A stretch of DNA of 24,600 bases, from contig JAYZBQ010000078.1 in NCBI GenBank assembly GCA_036338695.1, forward strand, positions 1 to 24,600, read 5' to 3'. The notes under the pieces were generated by a model. The model was not told the DNA's origin and did no database searches. It saw only the letters and a list, made by a program, of their open reading frames with translations. A program made the translations under genes and the position numbers. The stretch comes from Myxococcota bacterium (lineage in GTDB: Bacteria; Myxococcota; UBA4151). Below, one piece after another: positions 1,282-22,504 of the stretch. Within the stretch, counting starts at the first letter, position 1. Every line of letters begins with the position of its first letter.

Positions 1282-2046
1282 TCAGCGATCGCCGGGCTCG
1301 TCACCCTGAGCAGCGGCTAAAAAGGCGGGCGATTCGCCCCCCCCGTGCAGCGGGATGCAACCGCCGGTAAGATAGCGAGCAGCCGGTGAGTCGAGATACA
1401 GACACAGCGAGGCGAGGTCCTCAGCGGTGGCCATCCGCTGCAGCGGCACCGTCTTGGCGACTCGCTCCACCCCTTCGGCACCGCCGTAATGCGCTAAGCT
1501 GTCCGGTGTCTCGACAAACCCCAAGGCCACGGCGTTGACCCGCAGCGCAGGCGCCCACTCCACCGCAAGGCTTTGCGTGAGATGAATCAAACCCGCTTTC
1601 GCGGCTCCGTAGGCTGCGGTTCCCGGCGAGGGTCGCTGACCACTCACCGAGGCGACGTTGATGATCTGCCCACCCTCGGGCTGCGTCTTCATCACCGCGT
1701 GCGCGGCCGTTGCGCAGTACAGCGGCGCCAAGAGGTTGAGCTCGATGATCTTACGCGAAAAGCTGCTCGAGGCTTGATCAGCCGGCACCATGGGGCTGCC
1801 GCCTGCGTTGTTGATGAGCAGGTCGATGCCGCCGAGATAGGCGGCTGCTTCTTCGCAGGCTGCAGCGGCTTGATCCGGGTCGCGCAGGTCAGCGACCGTG
1901 AAACCGACCCCTTGCGTCAAAGCTTGGTCTGGGCGGCGGCGCGCACAGGTAAACACGCGATAGCCGCTCTCGACAAAAGCCTCGACCAGCCCGCGACCGA
2001 CCCCACGACTACCGCCTGTAATCCAAACTCGTCGCGTCGCCTTCAT
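1282..2046 (-). CDS. SDR family oxidoreductase, Rv3549c-like (HIP cluster associated)
   Basis: TGGSRGVG, NNAGG and YGAAK motifs; RPSPGTAAYGAAKAGL..LTQSLAVEWAP.LRVN and C-terminal LHGGGE.PAFL recalled from this family. Start ATG 2046 (TTG 2052 alternative). Confidence 0.9.
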   Translation of the reverse strand: MKATRRVWITGGSRGVGRGLVEAFVESGYRVFTCARRRPDQALTQGVGFTVADLRDPDQAAAACEEAAAYLGGIDLLINNAGGSPMVPADQASSSFSRKIIELNLLAPLYCATAAHAVMKTQPEGGQIINVASVSGQRPSPGTAAYGAAKAGLIHLTQSLAVEWAPALRVNAVALGFVETPDSLAHYGGAEGVERVAKTVPLQRMATAEDLASLCLYLDSPAARYLTGGCIPLHGGGESPAFLAAAQGDEPGDR

Positions 2047-2141: not shown

Positions 2142-3047
2142 ATGACTCGACTCTGCGATGGGCGCGTGGTGATCGTGACCGGCGCAGGCGCTGGGATTGG
2201 GCGGGCGCACGCGCTGGCGCTCGCAGAAGCCGGCGCCACCGTGATCGTCAACGATTTGGGCACCTCAAACCATGGAGAGGGCGCCAGCGAGGGGCCTGCC
2301 CAGACCGTCGCCAAGGCGATCACCGACGCCGGTGGGCGAGCGCTTGCGAACACAGACGATGTGACCGACAGCGACGCCATGCGCGCGCTCGTCGACGAGA
2401 CGATCTCCACCTTTGGGACCTTACACGCCGTCGTCAACAACGCCGGTTTTGTCCGAGACCGCATGTTTGTTTCCTGCGGTGACGACGAGTGGGATGCGGT
2501 GATGAACGTCCACCTGCGCGGGCACCTCGCCTTGTCTCGTGCGGCTGCCCAATTCTGGCGGGCTCAAGCCAAGGCCGGCGATCCGGTCGATGCGCGCATC
2601 ATCAACACCAGCTCGGGCGCCGGCTTACGCGGCTCGGTGGGACAATCGGCTTACTCAGCAGCCAAAGCGGGGATCCTCGCGCTCACGCTGGTCCAAGCGG
2701 CTGAGCTCAAACGCTATGGCGTGACCGCCAATGTCCTCTCGCCTGCGGCGCGCACGCGTATGACGGAGGCCGTCTTTGCTGAGATGATGGCTCGCCCAGA
2801 GACTGGCTTTGACCGCATGGACCCAGCCAACATCAGCCCGCTGGTCGTCTATCTTGCGAGCGATCGTTCGGGGCATGTCAGCGGGCGTAGTTTTGAGGTG
2901 GAAGGCGGCCTCATCGCTCTCAACAGCGGCTGGCGTCGCGGCGCACAGCGCAGCCAGCAAGCGCGCTGGGATGCGCAGGCGCTCGGATCCGTGATCGACG
3001 AACTGATCGCCGAACAACCGGCGGACACGCCCCCCTACGGCGCCTGA
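2142..3047 (+). CDS. SDR family oxidoreductase (3-hydroxyacyl-CoA dehydrogenase-like), Rv3548c-like
   Basis: DGRVVIVTGAGAGIGRAHAL, VNNAGFVRDRM, DARIINTSSGAGL.GSVGQ..YSAAK; GGAGGAG RBS just upstream of ATG 2142. Confidence 0.92.
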   Translation: MTRLCDGRVVIVTGAGAGIGRAHALALAEAGATVIVNDLGTSNHGEGASEGPAQTVAKAITDAGGRALANTDDVTDSDAMRALVDETISTFGTLHAVVNNAGFVRDRMFVSCGDDEWDAVMNVHLRGHLALSRAAAQFWRAQAKAGDPVDARIINTSSGAGLRGSVGQSAYSAAKAGILALTLVQAAELKRYGVTANVLSPAARTRMTEAVFAEMMARPETGFDRMDPANISPLVVYLASDRSGHVSGRSFEVEGGLIALNSGWRRGAQRSQQARWDAQALGSVIDELIAEQPADTPPYGA

Positions 3048-3535
3048 TTCGCTGCCTCTGGCGGCATCCCAGCGTAGTCGGTGCGGCGATAGTTTTGATG
3101 GCACGCAAAGCAGCCATCGCCGCCCGCCGTCGGCTGCTGAGGGTTCCCCTCCTCATCGGGCGTGACCATCTCCCAGCGCCAGTTCCCGTTCGCCGTATCG
3201 CCGCCCACCTCCAAGCGGGTCATCATCGTCCAGCTCTTGAGCGTCGAACAGTTCGAGTTGCTGTATTGTGCCTTGAGCAGCACCGAGCCCGGCTGAAAAG
3301 CGACCATCTCACCTGGCGGCAAGGTGCCAAGTTCTGGATCGATGCGCTGCGCCCAATCTGTATAAGTCGGCTGCGCCAAGTCGTTGGCGAAGACGCGGAT
3401 CGTGTCGCCCCCGTGCACTGAGCCCTCGGTGCACGGCTTTACCTGCTTCCAGCTCGTCGTGTAATCTTCCGGGAAAGGTGGCTCTTCACCGCAACCGGTG
3501 AGCGCGACACTCGCTGCTAGGACAAAACGCATCAT
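3035..3535 (-). CDS. Cytochrome P460-family (beta-sheet) monoheme lipoprotein
   Basis: Lipobox LTGC; FPEDY..W, VFAN, F.PGSVLLK, GNWRW, C-terminal CFACH followed by DY, which is the P460/c'-beta layout; GGAGG RBS; begins 21 bp after the thiolase stop. Confidence 0.8.
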   Translation of the reverse strand: MMRFVLAASVALTGCGEEPPFPEDYTTSWKQVKPCTEGSVHGGDTIRVFANDLAQPTYTDWAQRIDPELGTLPPGEMVAFQPGSVLLKAQYSNSNCSTLKSWTMMTRLEVGGDTANGNWRWEMVTPDEEGNPQQPTAGGDGCFACHQNYRRTDYAGMPPEAANQAP

Positions 3536-3556: not shown

Positions 3557-4720
3557 TTACAGACGTTGCAGCAGAAGCGCCATCCCCTGACCGCCGCCGA
3601 CACACAAGGTCGCAAGGCCGATCTCTAGGTCCTCATCTTCCAGGGTATGCAGTAGCGTGGTGACGAGGCGGACACCGGTCATGCCGAAGGGGTGCCCCAG
3701 CGCCAGCGCGCCCCCCCGCACGTTCAAACGATCGTCTCGAATGCCGAGCTGCTGCTGGCACGGAATGACCTGCGCAGCGAAGGCTTCGTTGAGCTCGATA
3801 CGGTCGACGTCGGCGAGGGTCATGCCGGCAGCCTTGAGGACCCGCCGTGTCGACTCGACCGGGCCCATACCCATGAGTTCTGGGGACACCGAGCTGACCG
3901 CCGTGGCGATGATCCGGGCGCGCGGCCGCAGCCCGAGCTCGGTCACCCGGCGTCCGCTCATCACAACCGCTGCGGCGGCGCCGTCGTTCAAGGGGCAAGC
4001 GTTGCCCGCGGTCACGCGACCGTCCTCGCGAAAAACAGTCCGCAGCCCTTGCAACCCCTCCAGGCTGGTTCCCGCGCGTGGCGACTCATCCCGATCAAAG
4101 CGTCTGCCGGCGCCGAGCGGGACCGCCACGATCTCACGCTCAAAGCACCCGGTCTCGAGGGCGTGTACCGCCCGGCGCTGGCTCTGAACGGCGTAGGTGT
4201 CCATCTGCTCACGCGTGACCCCGTAGGTATCGGCGACCCGCTCAGCGGTCTCGCCCATCGCCAGGTAAACATCCGGCAGGTCCGGCTCGGCTGCAAAGCG
4301 CGGGTTTTTGCTGCCCTCCATACCATCCGCTTTGCCGACATGGTAGCGACTGATCGCCTCAACGCCGGCGGCAATTTGAACCTGCGCCTCACCGGCTCGA
4401 ATCGCGTGATAAGCCATCCGAAGCGCCTGCAACGAGGAGGCGCAATAGCGATTGACGGTGGCACCTGCCGCGCCAGCCAGACCCGCTAGGAGCGAGACCG
4501 GTCGCGCCATATTGTAACCCTGCTCACCCGCTGGCTGGGCGCACCCGAGGAGCACATCCTCGACCTCGCTTGGGTCAAGCTCCGGCACCTCACCAAGCGC
4601 CGCTTGGATGGTCCAAGCCGCTAAGTCGTCGGCTCGCCAATCGACCAGGCTCCCTTTGAACGCCCGGGCGATGGGTGTTCGCTTGGCTGCAACCAAAACG
4701 GCGTCATGAGGTCGTAGCAT
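3557..4720 (-). CDS. Acetyl-CoA C-acyltransferase (thiolase), resembling the actinobacterial FadA3-type clade
   Basis: NRYCASS active Cys, NEAFA, GHPFG and CVGGGQG; LPDVYLAMGETAE and TAGNACPLNDGA signatures; overlaps the fadD3 stop by 17 bp. Confidence 0.93.
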   Translation of the reverse strand: MLRPHDAVLVAAKRTPIARAFKGSLVDWRADDLAAWTIQAALGEVPELDPSEVEDVLLGCAQPAGEQGYNMARPVSLLAGLAGAAGATVNRYCASSLQALRMAYHAIRAGEAQVQIAAGVEAISRYHVGKADGMEGSKNPRFAAEPDLPDVYLAMGETAERVADTYGVTREQMDTYAVQSQRRAVHALETGCFEREIVAVPLGAGRRFDRDESPRAGTSLEGLQGLRTVFREDGRVTAGNACPLNDGAAAAVVMSGRRVTELGLRPRARIIATAVSSVSPELMGMGPVESTRRVLKAAGMTLADVDRIELNEAFAAQVIPCQQQLGIRDDRLNVRGGALALGHPFGMTGVRLVTTLLHTLEDEDLEIGLATLCVGGGQGMALLLQRL

Positions 4721-6314
4721 CGTGCGCTCGCTCCTTGAGTTTGTATTTGAGCACCTTGCCGCTCGCGTTCATGGGCAACGAGTCGACCCACCGCACTGCG
4801 CGCGGTACCTTGAAATTTGCGAGGCGCTCCCGGCACAGGCTCATCAGCCCCTCCTCCTCGGCGACCGCGCCCTGCTTTGCCACCAAGTAGGCGACGCACA
4901 CCTCACCTAAGCGCTGATCAGGGACCCCGACCACCGCCGCTTGAGCCACCGCTTGATGCGCCAAGAGGACCTGCTCGACCTCCGCAGGGTACACGTTGAA
5001 GCCGCCCACGATCACCATGTCCTTTTTGCGGTCCGTGATCTGGAGGTACCCACGCGCATCGAGCATGCCGATGTCTCCCGTGTGCAAAAACCCATCCGAC
5101 TCGATCGCCTCGGCTGTGGCGACGTCATCGCGCCAGTAGCCGCTCATGACGTTGTAGCCGCGCACCATCACCTCGCCCGCCTCGCCGGCCTTCGCCTGTA
5201 GGCCATCCGAGCGGATAATTTTGACCTCCACGTCAGGGATCGAGCGCCCCGAGGTGGTTGCGATGGTCTCTGGGTCGTCATCGTGGCGACACATGGTCAC
5301 CACGCCGGTGGTCTCCGTTAGACCATACCCGGTGATGACGGTCTCAAAGCCGAGCCGGTGGCGCATCTGCTCGATCAACGTCACGGGAATCACCGCCGCG
5401 CCTGTCACCGCCAACCGCAGGCTCGAGCGGTCGTACGCGTCGAGGTCCTGGCGCGCCAAAATCGTCTGATAAAGCGCCGGAGGACCCGGTAAAACGCTCA
5501 CCCGATCGCGCCCGACGCGCCGAAGTAAGCGCTCGGGGTCAAAGACAGGCTCGGGCAACACGGTGGCGCCGGTCATCAGGCAAGCCAGCCAGCCAGCCTT
5601 GTAGCCGAAGGAGTGGAAGAAGGGCATCGCCACAAGGTACCGATCACCGGCTCGCAGACCGACGACCTCGGCCCAGTCTCGAAACACCCGCAGCGTCTGA
5701 GCGTGTGTGCTCGGCACCCCTTTGGGGGCGCCCGTGGTTCCCGACGTGAACAGAAGGTCGCAGAGATCATGGGCGCGCACCTGACGCCGGCGCGCTGCGA
5801 GCTCAGCGGGTGCCACCTCGGCACCGAGCGCTACAAAGCGCTGCCAGGACACCGCGCGCTCGTCGAGGCCGTCGAGCAGGACGACGTGGTCGAGCTGCGG
5901 CTGGCTTTGAGCGCGCGCGAGCAGGTCGAGGTAATCGGTGTCGAGGAAGCCCTCGATGGTGACGAGAAGACGGGCGCCGCTACGCTCTAAAATATAGGCT
6001 GCCTCATCGCCTCGGTACCGCGTGTTGATCGGCACCAGGCACGCGCCCACGCGCTGAATGCCCAGGGCCACAAGCACCCAATTCGGGTGATTCGGCGCCC
6101 ACAGCGCGACGCGATCACCCTGCGCGACGCCGAGCGCCATCAAGGCGGTCGCCGCCCGGTCCACAAGCTCTGGTAAGTCCGCGAAACGGATGCGCACCGA
6201 GTCAGCCTCGATGAACACGGCGTCGCCGTGAGCCTGCGCGGCGTGATCGACGAGGTCAGCGAGGGTCTGATAGACAAGATCGCCGCGGCAGCCTGATGCT
6301 TCAAAATCGGCCAT
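4704..6314 (-). CDS. fadD3: HIP-CoA ligase (FadD3-family acyl-CoA synthetase)
   Basis: FTSGTTGAPKG, PFFHSFGYKAGWLACL (FadD3-type), GYGLTE, LHTGDIG, GGFNVYPAEVE, GKVLK. Start reassigned to ATG 6314 with an AAGGGAG RBS; lies next to echA20-ipdABC. Confidence 0.88.
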   Translation of the reverse strand: MADFEASGCRGDLVYQTLADLVDHAAQAHGDAVFIEADSVRIRFADLPELVDRAATALMALGVAQGDRVALWAPNHPNWVLVALGIQRVGACLVPINTRYRGDEAAYILERSGARLLVTIEGFLDTDYLDLLARAQSQPQLDHVVLLDGLDERAVSWQRFVALGAEVAPAELAARRRQVRAHDLCDLLFTSGTTGAPKGVPSTHAQTLRVFRDWAEVVGLRAGDRYLVAMPFFHSFGYKAGWLACLMTGATVLPEPVFDPERLLRRVGRDRVSVLPGPPALYQTILARQDLDAYDRSSLRLAVTGAAVIPVTLIEQMRHRLGFETVITGYGLTETTGVVTMCRHDDDPETIATTSGRSIPDVEVKIIRSDGLQAKAGEAGEVMVRGYNVMSGYWRDDVATAEAIESDGFLHTGDIGMLDARGYLQITDRKKDMVIVGGFNVYPAEVEQVLLAHQAVAQAAVVGVPDQRLGEVCVAYLVAKQGAVAEEEGLMSLCRERLANFKVPRAVRWVDSLPMNASGKVLKYKLKERAHDATTS

Positions 6315-6325
6315 GCTGCGCTCCC

Positions 6326-6355
6326 TTGACGGCAAACTGAAACACGTTTCATTCT
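6326..6355 (+). promoter_or_regulatory. Putative sigma70-type promoter for the echA20-ipdABC arm
   Basis: TTGACG (6326-6331), 18-bp spacer, CATTCT (6350-6355), within the only intergenic gap between the divergent operons. Confidence 0.5.
6338..6351. promoter_or_regulatory. 14-bp palindromic operator TGAAAC-AC-GTTTCA matching the KstR consensus TnnAACnnGTTnnA
   Basis: Perfect 6-bp inverted arms; AT-rich against a GC-rich background; lies between the -35 and -10 and overlaps the -10. Confidence 0.75.
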
Positions 6356-6387
6356 GCGGTGGCAAGCGCCGAGGAACGACGACGACG

Positions 6388-7134
6388 ATGGCGATCACAA
6401 CGCATTTCGATGGAGCCATCGCCGAGGTCGTGGTGGACCGACCACCCGTCAACGCGCTCGACAGCCAGGCCTGGTTTGAGCTGGCTGAGGCCATCACCGC
6501 CGCAGGGCGACGTAACTCGGTCTGTGTCGTGGTGCTGCGCGCCGAGGGGCGGGGCTTCAACGCCGGCGTCGACCTCAAAGCGTGTCAGGCGAGCGACGGA
6601 CACGATGAGCTGCTGGCGGTCAACAGAGCATGTTTTGCTGCCTTCAAGGCGATCTATGAGTGCGAGGTCCCGGTGCTCGCCGCGGTGCACGGCTTCTGTC
6701 TGGGCGGTGGCGTCGGTTTGGTCGGAAACGCCGACCTAGTGATCGCCGCGAGCGACGCGAGCTTCGGTTTGCCCGAGGTGGACCGGGGCGCGCTCGGCGG
6801 CGCCACGCAGCTGGCGCGGCTGGTGCCGTCACCTCAGCGGCTGCGCAGTCTTGTGTTCACGGGCGAGCGGATCGGCGCAGACGAGCTGGCGCGCTATGGC
6901 TCGGTTCAAGAGGTCGTTGCGCCCGAGCGCTTACGTGAGGAGGCGCTGCGCTGGGCGGGTAAACTTGCGCAGAAAGACCCCAAGGTGCTGCGCGCCGCCA
7001 AGGACTGCCTCAACGGGATCGATCCGGTCGACGTCAACAGGAGCTATCGCTACGAGCAGGGCTACACCTTTGAGCTCAACCTCAGCGGGCATGGTGACGC
7101 CGCTCGACAGGCTTTTGTCCGCGGAGAGGACTGA
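6388..7134 (+). CDS. echA20: EchA20-type crotonase (HIEC-CoA hydrolase, steroid ring D opening)
   Basis: PPVNAL, AEGRGFNAGVDLK, GFCLGGGVGLVGNAD, FGLPEVDRGALG, DVNRSYRYEQGYTFELNL; GAGGA RBS before ATG 6388; immediately precedes ipdA. Confidence 0.9.
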   Translation: MAITTHFDGAIAEVVVDRPPVNALDSQAWFELAEAITAAGRRNSVCVVVLRAEGRGFNAGVDLKACQASDGHDELLAVNRACFAAFKAIYECEVPVLAAVHGFCLGGGVGLVGNADLVIAASDASFGLPEVDRGALGGATQLARLVPSPQRLRSLVFTGERIGADELARYGSVQEVVAPERLREEALRWAGKLAQKDPKVLRAAKDCLNGIDPVDVNRSYRYEQGYTFELNLSGHGDAARQAFVRGED

Positions 7135-7955
7135 TGCGCCCCGATAAGCGCATGACGCCTGAGGAGGCGGTGGCTGAACTCGAAGACGGGATGACCATCG
7201 GGATCGGCGGCTGGGGCTCTCGACGCAAGCCGATGAGGCTCGTGCGCGCCTTGCTCGAGAGCGCGCTGAGTGAGCTGACCGTTGTCAGCTATGGCGGCCC
7301 GGACGTCGGCTTGTTGGCGCGCGCCCAGCGCATCAAGCGCCTCCTCTATGGCTTTGTTTCGCTCGACTCGATTCCGCTCGAGCCCCACTTTCGCCAAGCG
7401 CGTCAACGGGGCGCCTTCGAGGCGGTTGAGATGGACGAGGGGATGCTCTGGTGGGGGCTCTATGCTGCGGCGCTCAAGCTCCCCTTTCTACCGACGCGTG
7501 CCGGGCTCGGCTCCGACGTGGTGACGCGCTCAAGCCTGCTCAAAACCGTCCGCTCACCCTATGCGGATTGCGAGGAGCTCGTCGCCGTTCCGGCGATCAA
7601 ACTCGACGCCGCCTTCATCCACGTCCACCGCGCCGACGCGGCAGGCAATGGCATGATCCTTGGACCCGACCCCTATTTTGATCGGCTCTTTGCGCAAGCC
7701 GCCAAGCACACCTACATGAGCTGCGAGCAGCTCGTTGAGACCGAGTCGCTCTTTGATGAGGCGACCTATCAGAGCGAGTCGATCGCCCGCCTTCACGTCC
7801 ATGGCGTCATCGAGGCGCCCAAAGGGGCAGGGTTTACCGAGTGCCTACCGGACTATGCGCGCGACGAGGCGCTGCAATCGCTCTATGCACAAGGAGCCAA
7901 AGACGACGAAGCGTGGGCTGAGTTCGAGCGCCGGTTCATGCAGGAGGCCCCATGA
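7134..7955 (+). CDS. ipdA: Steroid ring C-cleaving hydrolase, alpha subunit (class I CoA-transferase fold)
   Basis: GMTIGIGGWGSRRKPM, YGGPDVGLL, YGFVSLDS, EMDEGM, LPFLP.RAGLGS, DPYFD.LF, PDY.RDE, all matching IpdA/Rv3551 as recalled. Confidence 0.92.
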   Translation: MRPDKRMTPEEAVAELEDGMTIGIGGWGSRRKPMRLVRALLESALSELTVVSYGGPDVGLLARAQRIKRLLYGFVSLDSIPLEPHFRQARQRGAFEAVEMDEGMLWWGLYAAALKLPFLPTRAGLGSDVVTRSSLLKTVRSPYADCEELVAVPAIKLDAAFIHVHRADAAGNGMILGPDPYFDRLFAQAAKHTYMSCEQLVETESLFDEATYQSESIARLHVHGVIEAPKGAGFTECLPDYARDEALQSLYAQGAKDDEAWAEFERRFMQEAP

Positions 7956-8674
7956 GCGAGCGCCGCGCCGATATCTGCATCGCCGCGATCGCCGACGCCT
8001 TCGCCACCGACCGAGAGATCTTGGCGAGCCCGATGGGCCGCCTGCCCTCGCTGGGCGCCCGACTCGCTCGTCAGACCACCTCACCCCAGCTGATGATCAG
8101 CGACGGGGTCGCAAGCCTCACCACGGAGGCGGGTGCGCTCGAGGCGCACCTGCCCTATCGCGAGGTCTTTCACACGCTCTGGTCAACCAAACGACACGTG
8201 ATGATGGGCGCCAGTCAGCTCGATGCCTACGGCAACCAAAACATTAGCTGCATCGGCCCGTTCGAGGCGCCCAAGGCGATGCTCATCGGTGCGCGCGGCG
8301 CGCCGGGTAACACGCTGTATCATCGAACCTCTTACTGGATCCCCGTTCAGTCGCCGCGCAGCTTTTGTGAGGCGGTCGATTTCGTCTGCGGCGTCGGCTT
8401 TGATCGTGCGCGCTCCCTCGGCGCACGAGACAGCCGCTATCACGACCTGCATCGGGTCGTTACGAACCTCGGCGTCTACGGGTTCAATCAGGAAGGTCGC
8501 CTCACTGCGCTGACCTTACACCCCGGCGTCGACCAAGCCGCAGTCAACCAAGCCAGCGGCTTTGAGATCGACTGCTCGAAGGCGACGGTCAGTCGGCCCC
8601 CGACCGCCCTCGAGATGGAGTGGATCGAGCGCTTTGACCCTGAGGCGAAGCGCTATCAGGAGGTCAGCGAGTGA
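7952..8674 (+). CDS. ipdB: Steroid ring C-cleaving hydrolase, beta subunit
   Basis: ASPMG, GARLAR, RHVMMGASQLD.YGNQNIS, G.RGAPGNT..H.TSYW, VVTNLGV, LHPGV; ATGA overlap with ipdA. Confidence 0.92.
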   Translation: MSERRADICIAAIADAFATDREILASPMGRLPSLGARLARQTTSPQLMISDGVASLTTEAGALEAHLPYREVFHTLWSTKRHVMMGASQLDAYGNQNISCIGPFEAPKAMLIGARGAPGNTLYHRTSYWIPVQSPRSFCEAVDFVCGVGFDRARSLGARDSRYHDLHRVVTNLGVYGFNQEGRLTALTLHPGVDQAAVNQASGFEIDCSKATVSRPPTALEMEWIERFDPEAKRYQEVSE

Positions 8675-9735
8675 GCCCCGTCAGCAGCAGCTTTTGTGCG
8701 CTGGTCGGCTGTCGCGTCCCGATCGTTCAAACCGGCATGGGCTGGGTGGCGACACCGCCCCTCGTCGCCGCCGTGAGCGAGGCCGGTGCGTTTGGCATTT
8801 TAGCGGGCGCCACGCTGACGCTCGACGAATTGCGAGCGAGCATCGACGCGGTCCAGGCGGCGACCGCTCAACCCTTTGGCGTGAACTTGCGCTCCGACGC
8901 ACCCGACGCTGCGGCGCGCGTAGACCTCTTGATCGAAAAGCGGGTCCGCTTGGCGAGCTTTGCGGCGGCGCCCCAGCGCGCGCTGATCGATCGCCTCAAG
9001 GGGCAGGACGTCCTGGTCATGCCGACGGTCGGTAAGCGACGCCACGCGGAGAAGGTTGCGCAGTGGGGCGTCGATGCGCTGATCGCGCAGGGACATGAGG
9101 GAGGTGGTCACACCGGACCGGTCCCGACCAGTCTCTTGCTCCCAGACGTCATCGACGCCGTGGATCTCCCCGTGCTCGCAGCCGGTGGCTATCGCTGCGG
9201 TCGTGGCTTGGTCGCCGCCATGAGCTTTGGCGCCGCAGGCATCGCCATGGGGACGCGCTTCTTGCTGAGCCAAGAGAGCCCGGTCCCGCAGCAGGTCAAG
9301 GCGCGCTACCTCGAGGCGCAGGTGACGGACACCACGGTCTCGACGCGTATCGACGGGCACCCTCAACGGGTGATCACGACCCCCTTCGTGCATCGGCTCG
9401 AGGGGCGCGGCGCGCTGGGGCGACTCTTTCTGGCTCTGCGCTCAGGCCTCGCCTTTCGACGGGTGACCGGGGTTGGGTTGTTTGGCCTCTTATCCGCCGG
9501 TCTGACGATGCGCCGCAGGCAAGGTCTGAGCCTCGCACAAGCGATCTCTGCGGCGAATGCGCCGATGCTCACCCAGCAAACCATGGTCGACGGTCAGCTC
9601 AACGCCGGCATCCTACCCACTGGGCAGGTCACCGGTCTGATCGAACACACCCCGCCTGCGCGCGAGATCATCGAGCGCATCATGTCCGAGGCAGACGAGA
9701 CCCTAAACCGCCTCACTGGAGCCCGAAATGGCTGA
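8671..9735 (+). CDS. ipdC: IpdC-type flavoprotein (nitronate monooxygenase/FabK-like fold) of HIP catabolism
   Basis: PIVQTGMGWVA, PFGVNLR, QGHEGGGHTG, GIAMGTRFLL.QES, AANAPML, GILPTGQV.G; GTGA overlap with ipdB. Confidence 0.88.
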   Translation: MSPVSSSFCALVGCRVPIVQTGMGWVATPPLVAAVSEAGAFGILAGATLTLDELRASIDAVQAATAQPFGVNLRSDAPDAAARVDLLIEKRVRLASFAAAPQRALIDRLKGQDVLVMPTVGKRRHAEKVAQWGVDALIAQGHEGGGHTGPVPTSLLLPDVIDAVDLPVLAAGGYRCGRGLVAAMSFGAAGIAMGTRFLLSQESPVPQQVKARYLEAQVTDTTVSTRIDGHPQRVITTPFVHRLEGRGALGRLFLALRSGLAFRRVTGVGLFGLLSAGLTMRRRQGLSLAQAISAANAPMLTQQTMVDGQLNAGILPTGQVTGLIEHTPPAREIIERIMSEADETLNRLTGARNG

Positions 9736-10567
9736 ACTGGTCCTGTACCGTGTCGACGAAGGCATCGCTCGTATCACACTCAACCGGCCTGAGTATCGCA
9801 ACGCTCAAAACGTCGCGATGCTGCACGCGCTCGATGATGCGATGAGCGCTGCAGCCTCTGATGACTCGGTCAAGGTGATCATCCTCGCCGGGGCGGGCGA
9901 TCACTTCAGCGCCGGTCACGACATCGGCACGCCGGCGCGCGACATCCCGGAGCCCTTTGAGCGGCGCGCAACGCAGTGGTGGGACCATGCGGATAAATCC
10001 GATTCAGAGAGCACCTTCGTTCGCGAACGGGAGGCCTACATCGGGCTATGCCGTCGCCTGCGCGCGGTCCCCAAACCGACCGTCGCGCAGGTTCAAGGCG
10101 CCTGCGTCGCAGGGGGGCTGATGCTGGCGTGGTGCTGCGACCTCATCGTCGCCAGCGAGGACGCCTTTTTTGCGGACCCGGTGGTGCGCATGGGGATCCC
10201 GGGCGTCGAGTGGTTTGCCCATGTTCATCAGCTCAACGCGCGGCTCGCCAAAGAGTTTTTGTTTACCGGCACGCGGCTGACCGCTGCGCGCGCCCACGAG
10301 ATCGGGATGATCAACCGCTGCGTCCCGGCCGATCAGCTCGAGACCCAAGTCAACGAGCTCGCTGAGCGCATCGCAACCATGCCGCGCATGGGCTTGGCGC
10401 TCACCAAGATGGTGATCAACCAAGCAGAAGACCGGTTGGGGCTCCGAGACACGGTCGAGCACGCCTATGGACTTCATCACTTTGCACACACGCACAATGC
10501 GGCGCAGAGCGACTATTTAGCCGGGCAGGACGTTCAAAGCATCAAGAAGAGCCTAAAGGACGACTAG
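9728..10567 (+). CDS. Enoyl-CoA hydratase (EchA13-like crotonase)
   Basis: ITLNRPEYRNAQN, HFSAGHDIG, QGACVAGGLMLAW.CDLIVAS, FADPVVRMGIPGVE; 8-bp overlap with ipdC. Confidence 0.88.
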   Translation: MAELVLYRVDEGIARITLNRPEYRNAQNVAMLHALDDAMSAAASDDSVKVIILAGAGDHFSAGHDIGTPARDIPEPFERRATQWWDHADKSDSESTFVREREAYIGLCRRLRAVPKPTVAQVQGACVAGGLMLAWCCDLIVASEDAFFADPVVRMGIPGVEWFAHVHQLNARLAKEFLFTGTRLTAARAHEIGMINRCVPADQLETQVNELAERIATMPRMGLALTKMVINQAEDRLGLRDTVEHAYGLHHFAHTHNAAQSDYLAGQDVQSIKKSLKDD

Positions 10568-11692
10568 TTGAACCTGACCGACCGCCCCGAAGACATCGAA
10601 TTCCGAGCTGAAGCGAGGGCTTGGTTGCGCAAGCACGTGCCCACCGGTTTAGCCAGCGGCGACACCGAGCAAGGGTTCGCAGAGCACCTTGAGTGGGAGC
10701 GCCAACTGCACGCGGCTCGGTGGGCGGTTGTCAGCTGGCCAAAAGCTTACGGAGGGCGCGACGCGTCGATTCGGCAGTGGCTGATTTTTGAGGAAGAGTA
10801 TTATCTGGCAGGCGGGCCACAGCGGGTCACCCAAAACGGTATCTTCCTGCTCGCGCCGACCCTCTTTGAGTTCGGGACACAGGCACAAAAGGACGCCATT
10901 TTGCCGGCGATGGCTGCTGCGGAGACGCTCTGGGCGCAGGCGTGGTCCGAGCCCGGCGCTGGCTCCGATCTCGCCGCCGTACGCAGCCGCGCCGAGCGCG
11001 TCGATGGAGGCTGGAGGCTCTACGGGCAAAAGACGTGGTGCACGAGGGCGGCTTTTTGTGACGCCTGCTTTGGCTTGTTTCGCACCGACCCCGACTCAGC
11101 GCGTCACCAGGGGCTCACCTACTTTATGGCGCCCCTGACAGGAGAAGGTGTCGAGGTGCGCGGGTTTGGTCGCCTCGACGGTGATGAAGGGTTCGCTGAG
11201 GTCTTCTTCGACGGCCTCTTCGTACCCGACGACGCCGTCATCGGAGCGGTTTCGCAAGGCTGGAAGGTCGCCATGGCGACGACCTCGTCTGAGCGCGGGC
11301 TGACGTTACGCAGTCCCGGGCGATTCCTGGCCGCGACCAAGCGCCTTGACCTCCTGCGGCGCCAACAACCTGTCGATCCGGCTCGCGACCTGCGCTGTCT
11401 TGATGCGGCGCTCAAGGCCGAGGCCTATCGAGTCTTTACGGAGGCTGCCGTCCACAACATGGAGCGTGGTCAGGACCTTGGCTCACGCTCGAGCCTCATG
11501 AAGGTCTACTGGTCTGAGCTCGACATCGAGCTGCATGAGACGGCTCTTGAGCTTCTGGGTGATGACGCAGCCCTCGAGCATGACTGGAGCAAAGCGTATC
11601 AGTTTAGCCTGGCTGGGCCGATCTACGCCGGGACCAACGAGATCCAGCGCAAAATCATCGCCGAGCGCTTGCTCGGCTTACCGAGGCGCTGA
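10568..11692 (+). CDS. fadE31: Acyl-CoA dehydrogenase, FadE31-like (catalytic subunit of a heteromeric ACAD)
   Basis: WP..YGGRDA...W.IFEEEY, WAQAWSEPGAGSDLA, SSERG.TLRSP.RF, KVYWSELD, GPIYAGTNEIQR.IIAERLLGLPR; TTG start abuts the previous stop. Confidence 0.85.
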   Translation: MNLTDRPEDIEFRAEARAWLRKHVPTGLASGDTEQGFAEHLEWERQLHAARWAVVSWPKAYGGRDASIRQWLIFEEEYYLAGGPQRVTQNGIFLLAPTLFEFGTQAQKDAILPAMAAAETLWAQAWSEPGAGSDLAAVRSRAERVDGGWRLYGQKTWCTRAAFCDACFGLFRTDPDSARHQGLTYFMAPLTGEGVEVRGFGRLDGDEGFAEVFFDGLFVPDDAVIGAVSQGWKVAMATTSSERGLTLRSPGRFLAATKRLDLLRRQQPVDPARDLRCLDAALKAEAYRVFTEAAVHNMERGQDLGSRSSLMKVYWSELDIELHETALELLGDDAALEHDWSKAYQFSLAGPIYAGTNEIQRKIIAERLLGLPRR

Positions 11693-11695
11693 CCG

Positions 11696-12688
11696 ATGGG
11701 TTACCCCCTGAGCTCCGACCAGAAGGCTCTCTCGGACGCGATCGGCGAGCTCAGTCGACGCCACTGGACGCTCGACCACCGCGAGCGCGCATGGTTTGGC
11801 GATGAGGCCGCCGAGAGCGAGCTCAAGCGAGCGCTCATCGACGCGGGCGTCCTCGGGCTCATGGCGCCTGAGACGTGCGGCGGCATGGGGCAAAACCTCG
11901 TCGACAGCGCCGCCGCGCTCGAGCGGTTCGGGTATGATCTTTTTCCGGGCTGGGTCGCGCACCACGTCGTCGCCTGTTGCCTGTTAGTACGCCACCCGGA
12001 GCTCGCCGCCGAGGCAGGGCAGGGCAAGCCCCTCCTGCGTCTGCTCGACGCAGACCGCCACCTCCCCTATCCGCAGCAGGTCGAGACGGTGATCGCTTGG
12101 GGTGAGCAAGGTGTTGAGCTGCTGTCAGAGTTAACCTTCAAAAAGCTCGAAAGCACCGATAAAAACCGACCTCTTGCGCGCCTAGTCCGAGCGGGTCGAC
12201 GTCACGCGCTCAAGCACGCTCAGGGCGATGCGTTCGGCCGGCGAGCCTCCGAACTGAGCCTCCTCGCGGACGCCCTTCAATTGCTGGGCATGGGTCAAGC
12301 GGCGCTCGATATGAGCGTCGACTACGTCAGCCAGCGCCATCAGTTCGGTCAGCCCGTCGGCGCGCAACAAGCGGTTAAGAATCAGCTGGCAGATGCCCTG
12401 ATTGCGCTCGAGTTTGCGCGCCCCATGGTCCAGCGCGCCGCCTACGCTTGGCAGGAGGAAGAGGCGCTCACCGCCGGCCGCGTCAGCGGCTGCTGGATCC
12501 TCGTGACCGAGGCGGCACAGCGGGTGGAGCGCGCCGCATTGCAAGTTCACGGCGCAATGGGTTACTCGATCGAATATCCGCTGCATCAACTGCTCAAGCG
12601 GAGCTGGTCGCTGCGCGCAGCCCACGGCCGGCTTAGCGAGCATCGAGCGCAGGCACAGGAGTGGCTTTTGGGAGGGAACAGCGAATGA
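11696..12688 (+). CDS. fadE32: Acyl-CoA dehydrogenase partner subunit, FadE32-like
   Basis: Short, divergent ACAD with R.QFGQP.G..QAVK.QLAD and LQVHGAMGY..EY.L; lacks the C-terminal GTNEI motif; tandem with fadE31. Confidence 0.75.
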   Translation: MGYPLSSDQKALSDAIGELSRRHWTLDHRERAWFGDEAAESELKRALIDAGVLGLMAPETCGGMGQNLVDSAAALERFGYDLFPGWVAHHVVACCLLVRHPELAAEAGQGKPLLRLLDADRHLPYPQQVETVIAWGEQGVELLSELTFKKLESTDKNRPLARLVRAGRRHALKHAQGDAFGRRASELSLLADALQLLGMGQAALDMSVDYVSQRHQFGQPVGAQQAVKNQLADALIALEFARPMVQRAAYAWQEEEALTAGRVSGCWILVTEAAQRVERAALQVHGAMGYSIEYPLHQLLKRSWSLRAAHGRLSEHRAQAQEWLLGGNSE

Positions 12689-13839
12689 CGGAAGCGTACA
12701 TCATCGACGCCGTGCGAACGCCCGTTGGGCGACGCCGAGGCGGCCTTGCTCAGGTGCATCCGGCGGACCTGGGCGCGCACGTTCTGCAAGCCCTCATCAA
12801 CCGCACGAAGATCCCGGATGAGGCGGTCGACGACGTCGTCTTTGGCTGCGTCGACGCCGTGGGGCCGCAAGCGGGGGACATCGCAAGGACCTGCTGGCTT
12901 GCGGCTGGCTTTCACGAGTCCGTGCCCGGTGTGACCGTCGATCGACAGTGCGGCTCCTCGCAACAGGCGCTGCATTTCGCAGCGCAAGGCGTGATGTCTG
13001 GCACCCAAGACCTGGTGATCGCAGGCGGGGTGCAGAACATGAGCATGGTGCCGATTGGCGCCTCCATGATCGCAGGCAAGGAGCTGGGGCACGCCGACCC
13101 CTTTAGCGGCTCTTCGGGCTGGATCAAGCGCTACGGCGGTCAACCGGTCAATCAGTTCTACGGCGCCGAGATGATCGCCAAGCGCTGGGGCTGCACGCGT
13201 GAAGACATGGAGGCCTTTGCGCTGCAGAGCCATCAGCGAGCGATTACAGCTCAGGATGAGGGGCGTTTTGACAACGAGCTCTCGCCTTTGCTCGGGGTGA
13301 CACAGGACGAGGGACCGCGCGCTGAGACCAGTCTTGAGAAGATGGCGAGTCTCGACGTCCTGATGCCTGACGGGCGCATCACGGCAGCCTGCTCGTCTCA
13401 GATCTCCGACGGCGCCGCAGCGCTCTTGGTCGCTTCGCGCGCCGCGCTCGACCGCTACGGGCTCACCCCCCGGGCGCGCGTGCACCACCTGAGCGTGCGC
13501 GCAGCCGACCCGATCTGGATGCTCACGGCGCCGATCCCTGCGACGCGATATGCGCTGAAGCGCTGTGGTCTGAGCCTGAACGAGATCGACCTTTTCGAGG
13601 TGAACGAGGCCTTTGCGTCCGTGCCGATGGCTTGGCAGCGCGAGCTCAACGCCGACCCTGCCAAACTCAACGTGAGCGGCGGCGCGATTGCGCTGGGACA
13701 CCCCTTAGGTGCTACGGGCGCTCGCTTGATGACGACCCTGCTCAACGAACTCGAGCGTACGGGGGGTCGTTACGGGCTGCAGACCATGTGCGAGGGCGGC
13801 GGTCAGGCGAACGTGACGATTATTGAAAGGCTCACATGA
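12685..13839 (+). CDS. fadA6: Thiolase FadA6 of HIP catabolism
   Basis: MTEAYIIDAVRT, VPGVTVDRQCGSSQQA, AGGVQNMS, MLTAPIPAT, NEAFA, GHPLG, MCEGGG; ATG 12685 overlaps the fadE32 stop; GGAGGG RBS. Confidence 0.88.
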   Translation: MTEAYIIDAVRTPVGRRRGGLAQVHPADLGAHVLQALINRTKIPDEAVDDVVFGCVDAVGPQAGDIARTCWLAAGFHESVPGVTVDRQCGSSQQALHFAAQGVMSGTQDLVIAGGVQNMSMVPIGASMIAGKELGHADPFSGSSGWIKRYGGQPVNQFYGAEMIAKRWGCTREDMEAFALQSHQRAITAQDEGRFDNELSPLLGVTQDEGPRAETSLEKMASLDVLMPDGRITAACSSQISDGAAALLVASRAALDRYGLTPRARVHHLSVRAADPIWMLTAPIPATRYALKRCGLSLNEIDLFEVNEAFASVPMAWQRELNADPAKLNVSGGAIALGHPLGATGARLMTTLLNELERTGGRYGLQTMCEGGGQANVTIIERLT

Positions 13840-14861
13840 AACTCGGACTGATGATCGGATACTCTGGCGCCCATTTGGACCTCCCGGTCGATCTGGTTCA
13901 AGAGGCTGAGAGCCTTGGTTATGACTCGGTCTGGATGGCCGAGGCGTGGGGTAACGACGCATGCACGCCCGGGGGGTACCTCGCGGCCGTGACCGAACGC
14001 ATCCGGCTGGGCACCGCGATCATGCAGGTCCCAGCAAGAACACCGGCCAACGCGGCGATGACCGCAATGACGCTCGATGAATTGAGCAATGGGCGCTTCA
14101 TCATGGGGATCGGCATGAGCGGGCCCCAGGTGGTCGAGGGCTGGCACGGCAAACCCTACCGTCTGACCCTGACTCAGCTGCGAGAATACATCCAGATTCT
14201 GCGTCGGATTTTCGCACGAGAGGAGCCGCTCGAATTTGAGGGCAAGTATTTCCGTATCCCTTACGATGGCGAACGCTCGACAGGACAAGGCAAGCCCTTA
14301 AAGAGCCTCATGCATGGCACCGACCGGATCCCGATTTACACCGGGAGTTTGGCGCCCAAGTCGCAGCAGATGTGCGGCGAGTACGCCGACGGCTGTCTGC
14401 TCACCAACATGATCCCAGAGGTCCCCGAAGCGGTCATGGAGAACCTTGAGGTGGGCTTCGAACGCGCCGGCGGCGGCAAGAGCCTTGAGAACTTTGACCT
14501 CGCCTGCACCGTTGCGGTCGTGCTCGACGACGACCTCGAGCGGGCGCGCACGCCGCTGCGACAGCAACTGGCACGTTACGTCGGCGGGTTTGGGACCAAG
14601 AAAACCAACTTCTACAAAGACTATCTGAGCCGCTGCGGCTGGGCTGAAGACTGCGAAAAGATCCAAGATCTTTTCCTCGCAGGCCATGCCCGACAAGCCA
14701 TCGATGCGGTCCCGAACGAGATGATCGACGCCCTCTATTTGGTGGGTCCCAAGGAGCGGATCCAAGAGCGCTTTGAGGCCTGGAAGCGCTCCCCGATCGG
14801 TACCTTTATGGTCGGCAGTCGCGACCCGCGCGTGATCCGCTTGCTGGCCCAGTGTATGTAG
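13836..14861 (+). CDS. LLM-class (luciferase-like) F420-dependent oxidoreductase, Rv3520c-like
   Basis: MKLGL..GY, AE.LGYDSVW.AEAWG.DA, RLGTAIMQ.PARTP..AAM.A.TLD.LS.GRF, SGPQVVEGWHG, G.GKPLKS; ATGA overlap with fadA6; F420 genes adjacent. Confidence 0.9.
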   Translation: MKLGLMIGYSGAHLDLPVDLVQEAESLGYDSVWMAEAWGNDACTPGGYLAAVTERIRLGTAIMQVPARTPANAAMTAMTLDELSNGRFIMGIGMSGPQVVEGWHGKPYRLTLTQLREYIQILRRIFAREEPLEFEGKYFRIPYDGERSTGQGKPLKSLMHGTDRIPIYTGSLAPKSQQMCGEYADGCLLTNMIPEVPEAVMENLEVGFERAGGGKSLENFDLACTVAVVLDDDLERARTPLRQQLARYVGGFGTKKTNFYKDYLSRCGWAEDCEKIQDLFLAGHARQAIDAVPNEMIDALYLVGPKERIQERFEAWKRSPIGTFMVGSRDPRVIRLLAQCM

Positions 14862-14865
14862 CACC

Positions 14866-15333
14866 ATGCGTGCCCCGTCGGCGGTCTTCATCACGGTGGC
14901 AGCGCTCGTCTCAGCGGGCTGCTCCCCCAAAACGCCGCCTCCCAAGCCGGAAAAGGTCGTCGAGAAGGTGCCGGAGCCTGCGCCGCGCGTCGTGCCGCTG
15001 ATCCCCAAGATGAAGGGCATCAATGAACAGATGGAGCGGCTTGTTCAGGCTGTCAAAGCCGACCAGCGAGAACAGGCGACTGAAGTCGCCAACCTGATCA
15101 ACAACCTCGCGCTCGCCATTCACGTGGAGCACGACCTGCAGCCGGGTTATGGCGATCAGTTTGCGGCGATCACCGCCGACTTCCAAGCCGCCAGCAAGGC
15201 CATGATCGAAGCGACTAAGGGGTCTCCTCAGGACCTAAAAATAGCGCTGCGTCATCTGCATGATCAGTGCCTTCGCTGCCATGATCAGGCACCTGCAGCT
15301 GCCGGAGCGGGCGTCTGCCAGCTCGCCGACTAA
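14866..15333 (+). CDS. Monoheme class II (cytochrome c'-like, four-helix) lipoprotein
   Basis: Lipobox SAGC, Pro/Lys-rich tether, amphipathic helical body and a single C-terminal CLRCH (15268-15282); starts 4 bp after the LLM stop. Confidence 0.75.
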
Positions 15334-15962
15334 CGGTTCTTGAGCCCCTCGATGCTGAGGCTCGCGCTGCCGCCATACTTGCGATTGAGGTGCAGCAACA
15401 CCGGGGTCATCGCCTCCAGGGCGATCGTATTCCTGAGCGGTCCTGCATCGAGGACGCTGACCTCAAGCTGTGCCAGCAGTGGGAGCATCTCCTCACGATC
15501 GGCTTTGGCGCCGCAGACCAAGACGTCGCCAGCGATAGTGTGCTCGAGGTCTGCGAGGTGGGTGTGGCTGATGTGGTGCAAAGCCGCCACCACGCGCCCC
15601 GCGTCACCGAGGATCTCTTGCGCCTCGAGCGCCGCCGACTGACCAGGCGGCAAGAAGACCTGCCGGACCTTGGGCGGCTTGAGCGGCACCGTGATGTCCA
15701 CGAGGATCCGACCTGCGAGCATCGGCTTGATCGCCTCGAGCACGGCTCGGTGGGCGCCGTACGGCACGCAGAGCATCGCGTAGTCAGCGCCCTCGAGCGC
15801 ATGGGCATAGTCACCGCCAACAACGCCGAGCCCCTCGGCGGCTTGCGCGCCGCGCGCCGCGTCCCGCGAGCCGAGGCGCACCGAGACACCCGCTCTGGCA
15901 AACCGACGCGCCAAACCTCGACCTTCTTGCCCCGTACCGCCGATCAACGCGATGGTCTTCAT
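15330..15962 (-). CDS. fno: F420H2:NADP+ oxidoreductase (NADPH-dependent F420 reductase)
   Basis: [63 protein letters not shown]...LE.MTP.L..LN.KY; AGGAGG RBS before ATG 15962. Confidence 0.92.
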
Positions 15963-16022
15963 GGAACCCTCCTGACCCACCTACGGTTGACCAAAAAAGC
16001 TTCGGCGTACAAGACCCACACC

Positions 16023-16787
16023 ATGACAGACGAAGCCTTACAGATCGAAGCCATCTCCGGCTTACCGACGGTGGAGCCAGGTGATGACCTCGCCGCCTTG
16101 GTCATCCAGGCTTGCGCGGCGCAAGGCGGCTTGCGGTCAGGTGATGTGCTGGTCGTGGTCTCTAAGGTGGTCGCGCGGGCAGAGGGGCGCTTTGTGAACC
16201 TCGAGACGGTGCGACCAGACCCGACCTCGGTCAAGCTCAGCCGCGTGGTCAAGAAAGACCCGCGGCTGGTGCACCTGATCCTGCAAGAGAGTCGCGGCTT
16301 ATCGCGCACGGCGCCTGGGGTGATGATCGTTCGCCACAAGCTCGGTTTTATCTCGGCGAACGCGGGCATCGACTCAAGCAATGTCGGTCGCTCCGAGGAG
16401 TGGGTTTTGTTGCTCCCGGAAGACCCGGACGGCTCGGCACGCACACTGCGGCAACGGCTGGAGGCTGAATTTGGTGGACCCATCGGCGTGATCATCTCGG
16501 ACTCGCACGGTCGCCCGTTCCGCAAAGGGACCCAAGGGGTCGCCATTGGCTTATCGGGCATCCCGGCGCTGCTCGACCAGCGAGGTCAGAAGGACCGCTT
16601 TGGGCGGATCCTGACCAGCACAGAGCTCCCCCTCGCCGACCAGCTCGCAGGCGCCGCCGACCTCGTCGCAGGCGCGGGCGCCGAAGGGGTCGCCGCCGTT
16701 CGCTTGCGCGGGCTGACATGGTCGGTCGATGACGCGGCGCGCGCCTCGGATCTCCAACGCCCAGCCGACAAAGACCTGTACGCATGA
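16023..16787 (+). CDS. cofE: Coenzyme F420-0:L-glutamate ligase (stand-alone CofE, no C-terminal nitroreductase domain)
   Basis: GLP.V.PGDDLA, GDVLVVVSKVVARAEGR, ANAGIDSSN, LLPEDPD.SA, IISDSHGRPFR.G, ADQLA.AA.LV.G; real start ATG 16023. Confidence 0.95.
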   Translation: MTDEALQIEAISGLPTVEPGDDLAALVIQACAAQGGLRSGDVLVVVSKVVARAEGRFVNLETVRPDPTSVKLSRVVKKDPRLVHLILQESRGLSRTAPGVMIVRHKLGFISANAGIDSSNVGRSEEWVLLLPEDPDGSARTLRQRLEAEFGGPIGVIISDSHGRPFRKGTQGVAIGLSGIPALLDQRGQKDRFGRILTSTELPLADQLAGAADLVAGAGAEGVAAVRLRGLTWSVDDAARASDLQRPADKDLYA

Positions 16788-17707: not shown

Positions 17708-18249
17708 ACATCCTGCTGCCGATCCGCGCCCCTGAGTTTGCAAAGTCTCGGCTTGATGATGCGCGCCGCGCATCGATCTATCGCCAGCTCGTCGAGCGGA
17801 CCGTTCGCGTCATTCAAGAGCACGCCTCCGATTTTACCGTCTACTTGCTCTGCCCTGAAGAGGAGCAAGCCGAGTGGCCTGACCTGGCGCACATCGCCTG
17901 GCTCGACGACGAGCACCCTGGGCGGCTTGCGCAGGGCATCACCCACGCGCTGAGCCACTGGGAGCCCCCTGCGCTCGTGCTGATGCCGGATCTACCGCTC
18001 CTGTGCGCCGATGATCTCTCGGCGATGCTCAAGCAGACGCAGGACCTTGTCTGGATCCCCGACCGCAGCGGTCATGGGACCAACGGGATGATCTGGCGGG
18101 CTGGACCCCTGCCCTACCTCGCCTTCGGTCGACCGGATTCCATGCGCATCCACCTCAACGCGACGCGCGCCCCACGCCTCTACCGCCGCGGCTTAGCCTG
18201 GGACGTCGACACTCGGGCAGACTGGGACGCCTTACCGGCCGGGCGGTAA
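17704..18249 (+). CDS. cofC: CofC/FbiD guanylyltransferase (short, 181 aa)
   Basis: LLP.R....AKSRL, VLMPDLPLL...D, PDR.G.GTN, FG...S...H, DVDT.AD; ATGA overlap with cofD. Confidence 0.88.
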   Translation: MNILLPIRAPEFAKSRLDDARRASIYRQLVERTVRVIQEHASDFTVYLLCPEEEQAEWPDLAHIAWLDDEHPGRLAQGITHALSHWEPPALVLMPDLPLLCADDLSAMLKQTQDLVWIPDRSGHGTNGMIWRAGPLPYLAFGRPDSMRIHLNATRAPRLYRRGLAWDVDTRADWDALPAGR

Positions 18250-22424: not shown

Positions 22425-22504
22425 CGTCGCCGTCGCCGCAAGAAAAGACCAAACGCAAGCAAAAGCAGCGCGCTGGCGTCGACCGAGCCGCACGAGCAGC
22501 CGCC
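22415..22504 (-). other. MYXO-CTERM sorting signal
   Basis: GGCSC motif, short spacer, hydrophobic helix and Arg5 cluster at the extreme C-terminus. Confidence 0.85.

Follow-up and report, generated by a model that had tools for sequence, protein, structure and literature searches.

We found that the short gap between two divergent operons for steroid C/D-ring breakdown in a Myxococcota-like genome holds a palindrome (positions 6338-6351) that, judged by its sequence, is a conserved operator, to which a relative of the mycobacterial cholesterol repressor KstR probably binds. The stretch of DNA analyzed, hereafter the window, is 24,600 nucleotides long and represents contig C78 of the host genome (G000) in full. 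Taken with its counterparts elsewhere in this genome and in related ones, the site suggests that the C/D-ring genes were either taken over by a KstR-type regulon or have belonged to it all along. We thus consider it quite probable that a single KstR-type repressor covers both the upper and the lower pathway, with C/D-ring breakdown inside its regulon. In published accounts, KstR governs the upper pathway and KstR2 the lower, the two acting independently. A search of a largely open-access literature collection returned no paper that reports KstR from Myxococcota or places C/D-ring genes under its control.

The original prediction placed a KstR-type site in this gap, and the site is present: TGAAACACGTTTCA at 6338-6351 is the sole match to the operator motif TnnAACnnGTTnnA within the window, and its 6-bp arms (TGAAAC/GTTTCA, separated by AC) are perfect, as claimed. 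The gap measures 73 bp (6315-6387) and separates a minus-strand gene for a FadD3-family ligase from a plus-strand gene for an EchA20-family hydratase. The core of the operator, TGAAAC-AC-GTTTCA, is identical in four relatives (G001, G002, G004, and G005), and the exact 14-mer also precedes the KstR-like gene of G004. When 36 echA20 promoters were compared, the core proved to lie within an extended 18-bp dyad, A-N-core-N-T (6336-6353 in the window), with the A at -2 found in 35/36 and the T at +2 in 36/36. The latter base was considered as part of a -10 hexamer and rejected; because it mirrors the A two bases ahead of the box, we read it as part of the operator.

The promoter elements that had been proposed around the box fared unequally. 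TTGACG (6326-6331, plus strand), the likely -35 hexamer of the echA20 arm, does lie upstream of the box, and a T(T/G)GAC-type hexamer ending 6-8 nt ahead of the box occurs in 30 of the 36 genomes. CATTCT (6350-6355, plus strand; 18-nt spacer from TTGACG) overlaps the operator instead of bounding it, and the hexamer is not kept across relatives; it is at best an uncertain candidate for the -10. No -10 hexamer could be fixed across the 36 echA20 promoters, and a sigma-70 scan of the window did not call a promoter at 6326-6355. At the mirror position, 8 nt from the box, TTGCCA (6360-6365, minus strand) is the likely -35 hexamer of the fadD3 arm; GCAAG at this position is kept in G001 and G002 and is weaker in G004.

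The chance of a box match in any given 73-bp gap is about 3e-4, and 13 of 100 shuffles of the window contained one. A single match per window is therefore not rare, and the case rests on the genome and its relatives. The site had also been described as not of the KstR2 type. In agreement with this, no KstR2 box is found in any intergenic region of the window, and its three 1-mismatch matches all fall within genes.

The leftward arm, on the minus strand, begins with fadD3 (4704-6314), a member of the HIP-CoA ligase family (NF005801, 714.6 bits, cut-off 657). Coupled to it is a thiolase gene (3557-4720; Pfam and NCBIfam profile matches), and beyond a 21-bp gap lies a cytochrome P460-like ORF (3035-3535; PF16694), a possible third gene of this arm. 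The rightward arm, on the plus strand, opens with an enoyl-CoA hydratase gene of the echA20 family (6388-7134; NF005925, 367.6 bits, cut-off 260), whose plasmid relatives are annotated echA20. It continues with genes for ipdA-like CoA-transferase alpha (7134-7955; PDB 6CON/6CO6, E ~1e-81), ipdB-like CoA-transferase beta (7952-8674; PDB 6CO6/6CON, E 8e-60), an ipdC-like NMO-family reductase (8671-9735; PF03060, named by synteny), an echA13-like enoyl-CoA hydratase (9728-10567; NF006140, 403.5 bits, cut-off 280), fadE31-like and fadE32-like acyl-CoA dehydrogenases (10568-11692 and 11696-12688; Pfam matches, named by synteny), a fadA6-like thiolase (12685-13839; NF005865, 681 bits, cut-off 591), an F420-dependent LLM oxidoreductase of the Rv3520c family (13836-14861; TIGR03559, 357 bits, cut-off 335), and, lastly, a 155-aa ORF without a Pfam match (14866-15333). 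Spacing from echA20 to this last ORF is 4 bp or less throughout. Mycobacterial gene names are used here as assignments by family and synteny. For ipdA and ipdB they depend on PDB entries 6CON/6CO6, which we take to be IpdA/IpdB; echA13, fadE31, and fadE32 (by synteny) and fadA6 are likewise our presumed names for the window genes. The estimate that one site could control up to 13 genes holds as a count (10 rightward, 3 leftward), although two of these are the P460-like ORF and the ORF without a Pfam match.

The host had been taken to be non-actinobacterial, and it is indeed Myxococcota-like: loci of the same genus are labeled Myxococcota, and contig C78 ends in a MYXO-CTERM protein. The assembly (3.36 Mb, 64% GC) is 93.6% complete. 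Orthologous clusters in G001, G002, G004, and G005 make it unlikely that C78 is a stray actinobacterial contig.

A genome-wide scan for the motif near steroid genes, which the original prediction had called for, revealed clear enrichment. Loose box matches in G000 number 26, of which 10 are intergenic, versus about 1.1 expected; set against 64 palindromes of the same shape (mean 1.6), the box has the most intergenic matches of all. The second-ranked control palindrome, AnnTCAnnTGAnnT (8 of 14 matches intergenic), was dropped, its neighbors being scattered and unrelated. In five genomes, the strict motif and its reversed control gave 17/0, 16/0, 17/0, 27/3, and 17/1 matches. Further, a weight matrix trained on 35 sites, all from genomes other than G000, located ten sites in G000 at 19-26 bits, every one at a gene start; the next matches were one intragenic site at 17 bits and a 14-bit site before a second kshA.

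The genome holds ten boxes besides that at 6338-6351. Sites scoring 19-26 bits are found at fadD3/echA20 itself and before the amidohydrolase-hsaA-hsaC-hsaD-hsaE operon, the side-chain operon running from SCP2 to fadD19, a TetR gene on contig C13 (box at C13:24537), cyp125/echA19, a fadA-fadB-steroid dehydrogenase-5-alpha-reductase unit, a second SCP2, a second P450 (P450-NMO), and an esterase-like lipoprotein. The tenth site in this range, before a kshA, falls within an over-long gene call, 46 bp ahead of the likely start. Recurrence of the box before side-chain and A/B-ring genes is thus evident in G000. The boxed lipoprotein belongs to the pectinacetylesterase family (L006:8099-9337, G000:C4), and one box lies between SCP2 and an acyltransferase/Lcp-like oxygenase pair (L004:6674-8501, G000:C98); these genes are candidates for sterol-ester or uptake functions. 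The exact KstR2 box, AnCAAGnnCTTGnT, has 11 matches in G000, all within genes and none in C/D-ring promoters, and we reject these as regulatory sites.

As had been noted, the window encodes no regulator: there is no TetR protein among its gene calls, and a genome-wide TetR_N search placed none on C78. The expectation of a TetR protein encoded in trans was borne out by a KstR-like gene at C13:23932-24510, which has its own box 27 bp upstream. Its product is the only one of eight TetR proteins in G000 with the KstR C-terminal domain (TetR_C_20, over the Pfam cut-off, in addition to TetR_N). The best PDB sequence match of this protein is KstR (E 1e-15), with KstR2 at E 2e-7. Its structural model (pLDDT 93.6) resembles KstR structures with TM values of 0.81-0.86 (E ~1e-8 to 1e-9); the top folds listed are KstR entries and one Rhodococcus TetR, and the next listed TetR proteins stand at 1e-4. 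The recognition helix, VALGTLY, is of the KstR type, that of KstR2 being ILSGSLY. Identity in the HTH region is 61% to an actinomycete KstR and 46% to KstR2; in the ligand domain, the corresponding figures are 21% and 10%.

In a tree of 41 rows, the C13 protein groups with KstR from actinomycetes and Acidimicrobiia (99/97), in a separate non-actinobacterial group (82/88). Its overall identity to mycobacterial KstR is about 27%, and it scores 82.5 bits against the NCBIfam KstR equivalog NF033703, for which the cut-off is 280. We therefore call it KstR-like and not KstR in the strict sense. Other Myxococcota-like orthologues reach 110-143 bits with the same profile, Acidimicrobiia proteins 148-159, and actinomycete proteins 324-332. 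Of 20 orthologue loci outside the actinobacteria, 14 have an exact box within 200 bp before the regulator gene itself, and six have none. A plasmid search with the KstR-like protein returned one weak actinomycete match.

The search for KstR2-like genes, also called for, found none in G000 (93.6% complete; no match at E 1e-12) with a synteny-defined KstR2 query that had been validated against PDB 4W97 (E 2e-71). Because all of the genomes are metagenome assemblies, "no KstR2" here means that it was not found.

Comparison with relatives extends these observations. Our set comprises 36 distinct Myxococcota-like genomes, G000 included, which are related and hence are not independent trials. A box lies within 300 bp directly upstream of echA20 in all 36, and a KstR-like gene is present in 34. 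KstR2 was found in none: the best match stood at E 1.6e-18, whereas actinomycete controls gave 1e-46 to 1e-136. Of 199 echA20 loci, the best 80 were compared; a box occurs within 260 bp upstream in 17/17 Myxococcota-like cases and in 0/62 Actinomycetota, the 62 including one locus that is too short and 19 in which echA20 is inside an operon. In a sample of 251 genomes from the class of a Kofleriaceae-labeled genome, echA20 was found in 23, all 23 of them with the box; a KstR-like gene occurs in 1 of 20 echA20-less genomes of that class. In a sample from the phylum of G000, 8 of 301 genomes have a KstR-like gene, and three of these eight (G091, G121, and G126; 86-92% complete) have no echA20 match. 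Two genomes, G442 and G515, unite the regulator, upper-pathway, and C/D-ring operons in one cluster, with most operon heads boxed.

In two genomes of the set, G005 (93% complete) and G523, the KstR-like gene was not found in the assembly, although echA20 and its box are present. In G005 (L256, G005:C4), fadD3, echA20, and the box are kept, and hsaC and other strong boxes were not found, a pattern that would reflect either missing contigs or a decaying pathway. Three loci labeled Rhodobacterales, Enterobacterales, and Proteobacteria (L054, L056, and L076) were rejected as proteobacterial cases; with 30-39 MYXO-CTERM matches in each of the three genomes, they look like mislabeled Myxococcota.

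These findings suggest a mechanism. A dimer of the C13 KstR-like protein would occupy the spacer and -10 region in each of the two promoters, leaving the -35 hexamers 6-8 nt outside the box. Since TTGACG and TTGCCA flank the box symmetrically, one dimer would cover both promoters, and its binding would block the overlapping divergent promoters of fadD3 and echA20-ipdABC. As described in PMC1995591, KstR binds this class of motif, including a TGAAAC half-site, and the motif partly overlaps the -10. An early steroid-CoA ester (3-oxo-steroyl-CoA), arising after CYP125-like oxidation and FadD19-like ligation, would free all of the sites together. Incoming sterol would in this way switch on the lower pathway in a feed-forward manner, in contrast to mycobacteria, where HIP-CoA induces it stepwise. 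PMC8700777 gives 3-oxo-steroyl-CoA as the KstR effector, and the titles of PDB entries 5CW8 and 5CXI agree with this class of effector. We regard the effector as the least certain step of the mechanism; the ligand domain shares 21% identity with an actinomycete KstR, and the effector may thus differ. We take Arg158 and Trp164 of KstR to be pocket-lining residues. The former position is kept in G000 and is replaced in most orthologues, and the latter is Ser in the genus of G000 and Trp in other orthologues.

The claim of a single-repressor steroid regulon holds to the extent that the upper and C/D-ring operons are boxed, but five C/D-ring genes and kstD are not. In G000, the box is absent at the Rv3548c/Rv3549c-like pair, at the fadE33-fadE30-ipdF-like unit, and at kstD (best candidates, 4-6 mismatches). 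The pair consists of two SDR genes of the window: the Rv3549c-like gene (1282-2046, minus strand; NF005893 over cut-off), at whose promoter the best KstR-site candidate has 4 mismatches, and the Rv3548c-like gene (2142-3047, plus strand; NF005861 over cut-off). The ipdF-, fadE30-, and fadE33-like genes, the last two named by synteny, are on C13, and the HIP catabolic gene set is present in G000. These unboxed genes could mean that KstR is one of two inputs and that an unrecognized second regulator, either an activator or a HIP-CoA-sensing repressor other than KstR2, does the real switching of the lower pathway. An inverted repeat, CAAG-N9-CTTG (2076-2094), lies between the Rv3549c- and Rv3548c-like genes and is kept in G001; it is either a pair of back-to-back -35 hexamers or a separate site. 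The second meaning would suit an additional regulator, as would the occurrence of KstR and KstR2 boxes together before the echA20 operon in some actinomycetes and the retention of the box in G005, where the KstR-like gene was not found. However, the genes that are unboxed in G000 are often boxed in its relatives (G442, G515, G063, and G071), the repeat can also be read as promoter elements, and conservation in the 73-bp gap is confined to the box, the A-rich bases on its immediate left, and the pair of -35 hexamers. We therefore judge a second regulator to be improbable.

It is also conceivable, but very unlikely, that the site represses the echA20-ipdABC arm alone and that fadD3 merely adjoins it. 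The box stays with echA20 in 36/36 genomes, whereas its divergent neighbor varies (fadD3, an Rv3549c-like gene, or ipdA) and in many genomes is 300-830 bp away; one-directional repression from a divergent gap is on record for KstR2 (PMC3068626). Against this stand the 23 bp between the box and the fadD3 start codon, the conservation of the mirror -35 in the genus, and the fact that fadD3 has its own box in other genomes (L049 and L054). Finally, binding of the box by another of the eight TetR proteins of the genome, or its origin as a promoter element or a chance palindrome as the shuffled windows might suggest, deserves hardly any credence, given the enrichment before steroid genes genome-wide, the box at the KstR-like gene itself, the co-occurrence over 36 genomes, and the restriction of the KstR C-terminal domain to a single TetR protein.

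Control of both the upper and the lower pathway by one KstR-type repressor, the reading that we prefer, has its closest precedent in KstR of Mycobacterium and Rhodococcus (Rv3574/MSMEG_6042; PMC1995591). The two systems share the operator TnnAACnnGTTnnA overlapping the promoter, a box at the regulator's own gene, the targets kshA, hsaA-C-D, cyp125, echA19, fadD19, and ltp3/4-like genes, and the fold, HTH, and C-terminal family of the protein. They differ in the Myxococcota-like host, in the low identity of the protein, far under the NCBIfam cut-off, and in the C/D-ring operons, which would belong to the regulon here (echA20 promoter boxed in 36/36) and lie outside the KstR regulon in mycobacteria. 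The HIP-CoA-responsive KstR2 (Rv3557c; PMC3068626, PMC5380842) resembles the present system in its targets (fadD3, echA20, ipdABC, echA13, fadE31/32, and fadA6) and in having one 14-bp dyad in the narrow divergent gap ahead of echA20; here, however, there is no intergenic AnCAAGnnCTTGnT, no KstR2 orthologue was found, and the site is of the KstR type. Among Gram-negative bacteria, TeiR/TesR of Comamonas and EdcR of Caenibius (PMC8700777) likewise control steroid clusters, but they are other proteins with other sites than the KstR-like system. Four proteobacterial C/D-ring loci have no KstR box at their steroid promoters. Their EchA20 proteins are 44-49% identical to that of the window, those of actinobacteria about 60%.

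Other wirings are apparent in Actinomycetota. Among the 62 echA20 loci of this phylum, a KstR2 box (one mismatch or less) was found in 12 and the palindrome CTGAC-N5-RTCAG in 11; KstR boxes occur in 16, mostly ahead of upper-pathway neighbors. In some loci, six of which were inspected in detail, fadA6 shares the box with a fadE26-like gene or directly follows it. The CTGAC-N5-RTCAG palindrome, of Acidimicrobiia type, is located 22-178 bp before echA20 (L066, L071, L072, L074, L075, L078, L082, L089, L091, L093, and L114), and no KstR2 match was found in the Acidimicrobiia-type genomes searched. These bacteria resemble ours in having an echA20 promoter without a KstR2 box, but the separate palindrome presumably serves a separate lower-pathway regulator, with no merger under KstR. 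In several genomes of the genus of G575 (L305, L309, L310, L312, L313, L314, and L316), echA20-ipdABC is joined into one unit with a thiolase gene in a fadA5-like position, and adjacent KstR and KstR2 boxes precede the unit, pointing to possible dual control.

A different arrangement is found in the actinomycete G572 (L094, also L304), of the same genus as G575 (Actinophytocola). Its KstR is canonical, and each of its two C/D promoters bears a KstR box (L094:6251-6264 and 14854-14867); its gene order is unlike that of its congeners; fadA6 and ipdF abut. No KstR2 match was found among the 131-150 of 163 candidates scored, whereas KstR2 is present in 18/18 congeners with echA20. G572 thus indicates that a secondary takeover can happen, and it appears to be an independent takeover by KstR inside Actinomycetota.

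Is the merged wiring in Myxococcota ancestral or rewired? We consider it possible, though less likely than not, that one KstR over the entire pathway is the ancestral state, kept in Myxococcota, and that two-tier control arose later and twice, with KstR2 in actinomycetes and with the regulator of the CTGAC box in Acidimicrobiia. In favor of ancestry, the KstR-like proteins of Myxococcota branch deeply, as a sister clade, two classes of Actinomycetota use two different lower-pathway sites, and lineages with KstR boxes span the unresolved base of the clade of actinobacterial-type enzymes. Further, a CYP125-like P450 (L003:4497-5708, G000:C28) matches CYP125MRCA, a reconstructed ancestor, at 475 bits and modern CYP125/CYP124 structures in the PDB at 313-333 bits. 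Reconstructed ancestors attract distant sequences in any case. In favor of rewiring, G572 has KstR boxes and no KstR2 match amid congeners that bear KstR2. Trees of EchA20 plus IpdA (42 rows, 5 incomplete loci skipped) and of a four-enzyme set (31 rows) both leave the backbone unresolved; the KstR-box group requires three changes in one tree and one change, with support of 19/26, in the other.

If the preferred reading is correct, the sequences make the division of labor between KstR and KstR2 one among at least three ways, each specific to a lineage, of wiring these enzymes, and the merged form recurs across Myxococcota-like genomes. In molecular terms, a TetR repressor acting on a 14-bp dyad is nothing unusual. 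The findings point to sterol degradation in a phylum that two surveys do not mention, the terms "myxo" and "Deltaproteobacteria" being absent from their main text (PMC4810484, PMC5790920). They also predict that the C/D-ring genes would be induced by sterol and not by HIP alone, unless the ligand range of the repressor is wider. Intermediates of HIP catabolism have been linked to toxicity in mycobacteria (PMC5380842), and the merged wiring would provide a natural setting in which to ask why other lineages give HIP catabolism a separate switch. Should the ancestral reading be true, an early form of the cholesterol pathway may survive in this phylum, whose members include predators and makers of sterols.

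Several minor observations concern the surroundings of the cluster. The Rv3520c-family gene is followed by the F420 genes npdG, cofE, cofD, cofC, cofH, and cofG (window 13836-20467), and cof genes likewise border the steroid genes of G063. In Myxococcota, F420 synthesis and the sterol pathway may move together. The flanks (20448-24598 and 3-539) encode an OmpA/TSP3-repeat protein, a Dx-repeat MYXO-CTERM protein, and a C-type lectin with cysteine-rich repeats, which are typical myxobacterial surface proteins. A close strain is present in sequencing run X2, and RNA run X1 (share 0.08) yielded one 207-nt contig, corresponding to 6392-6598.
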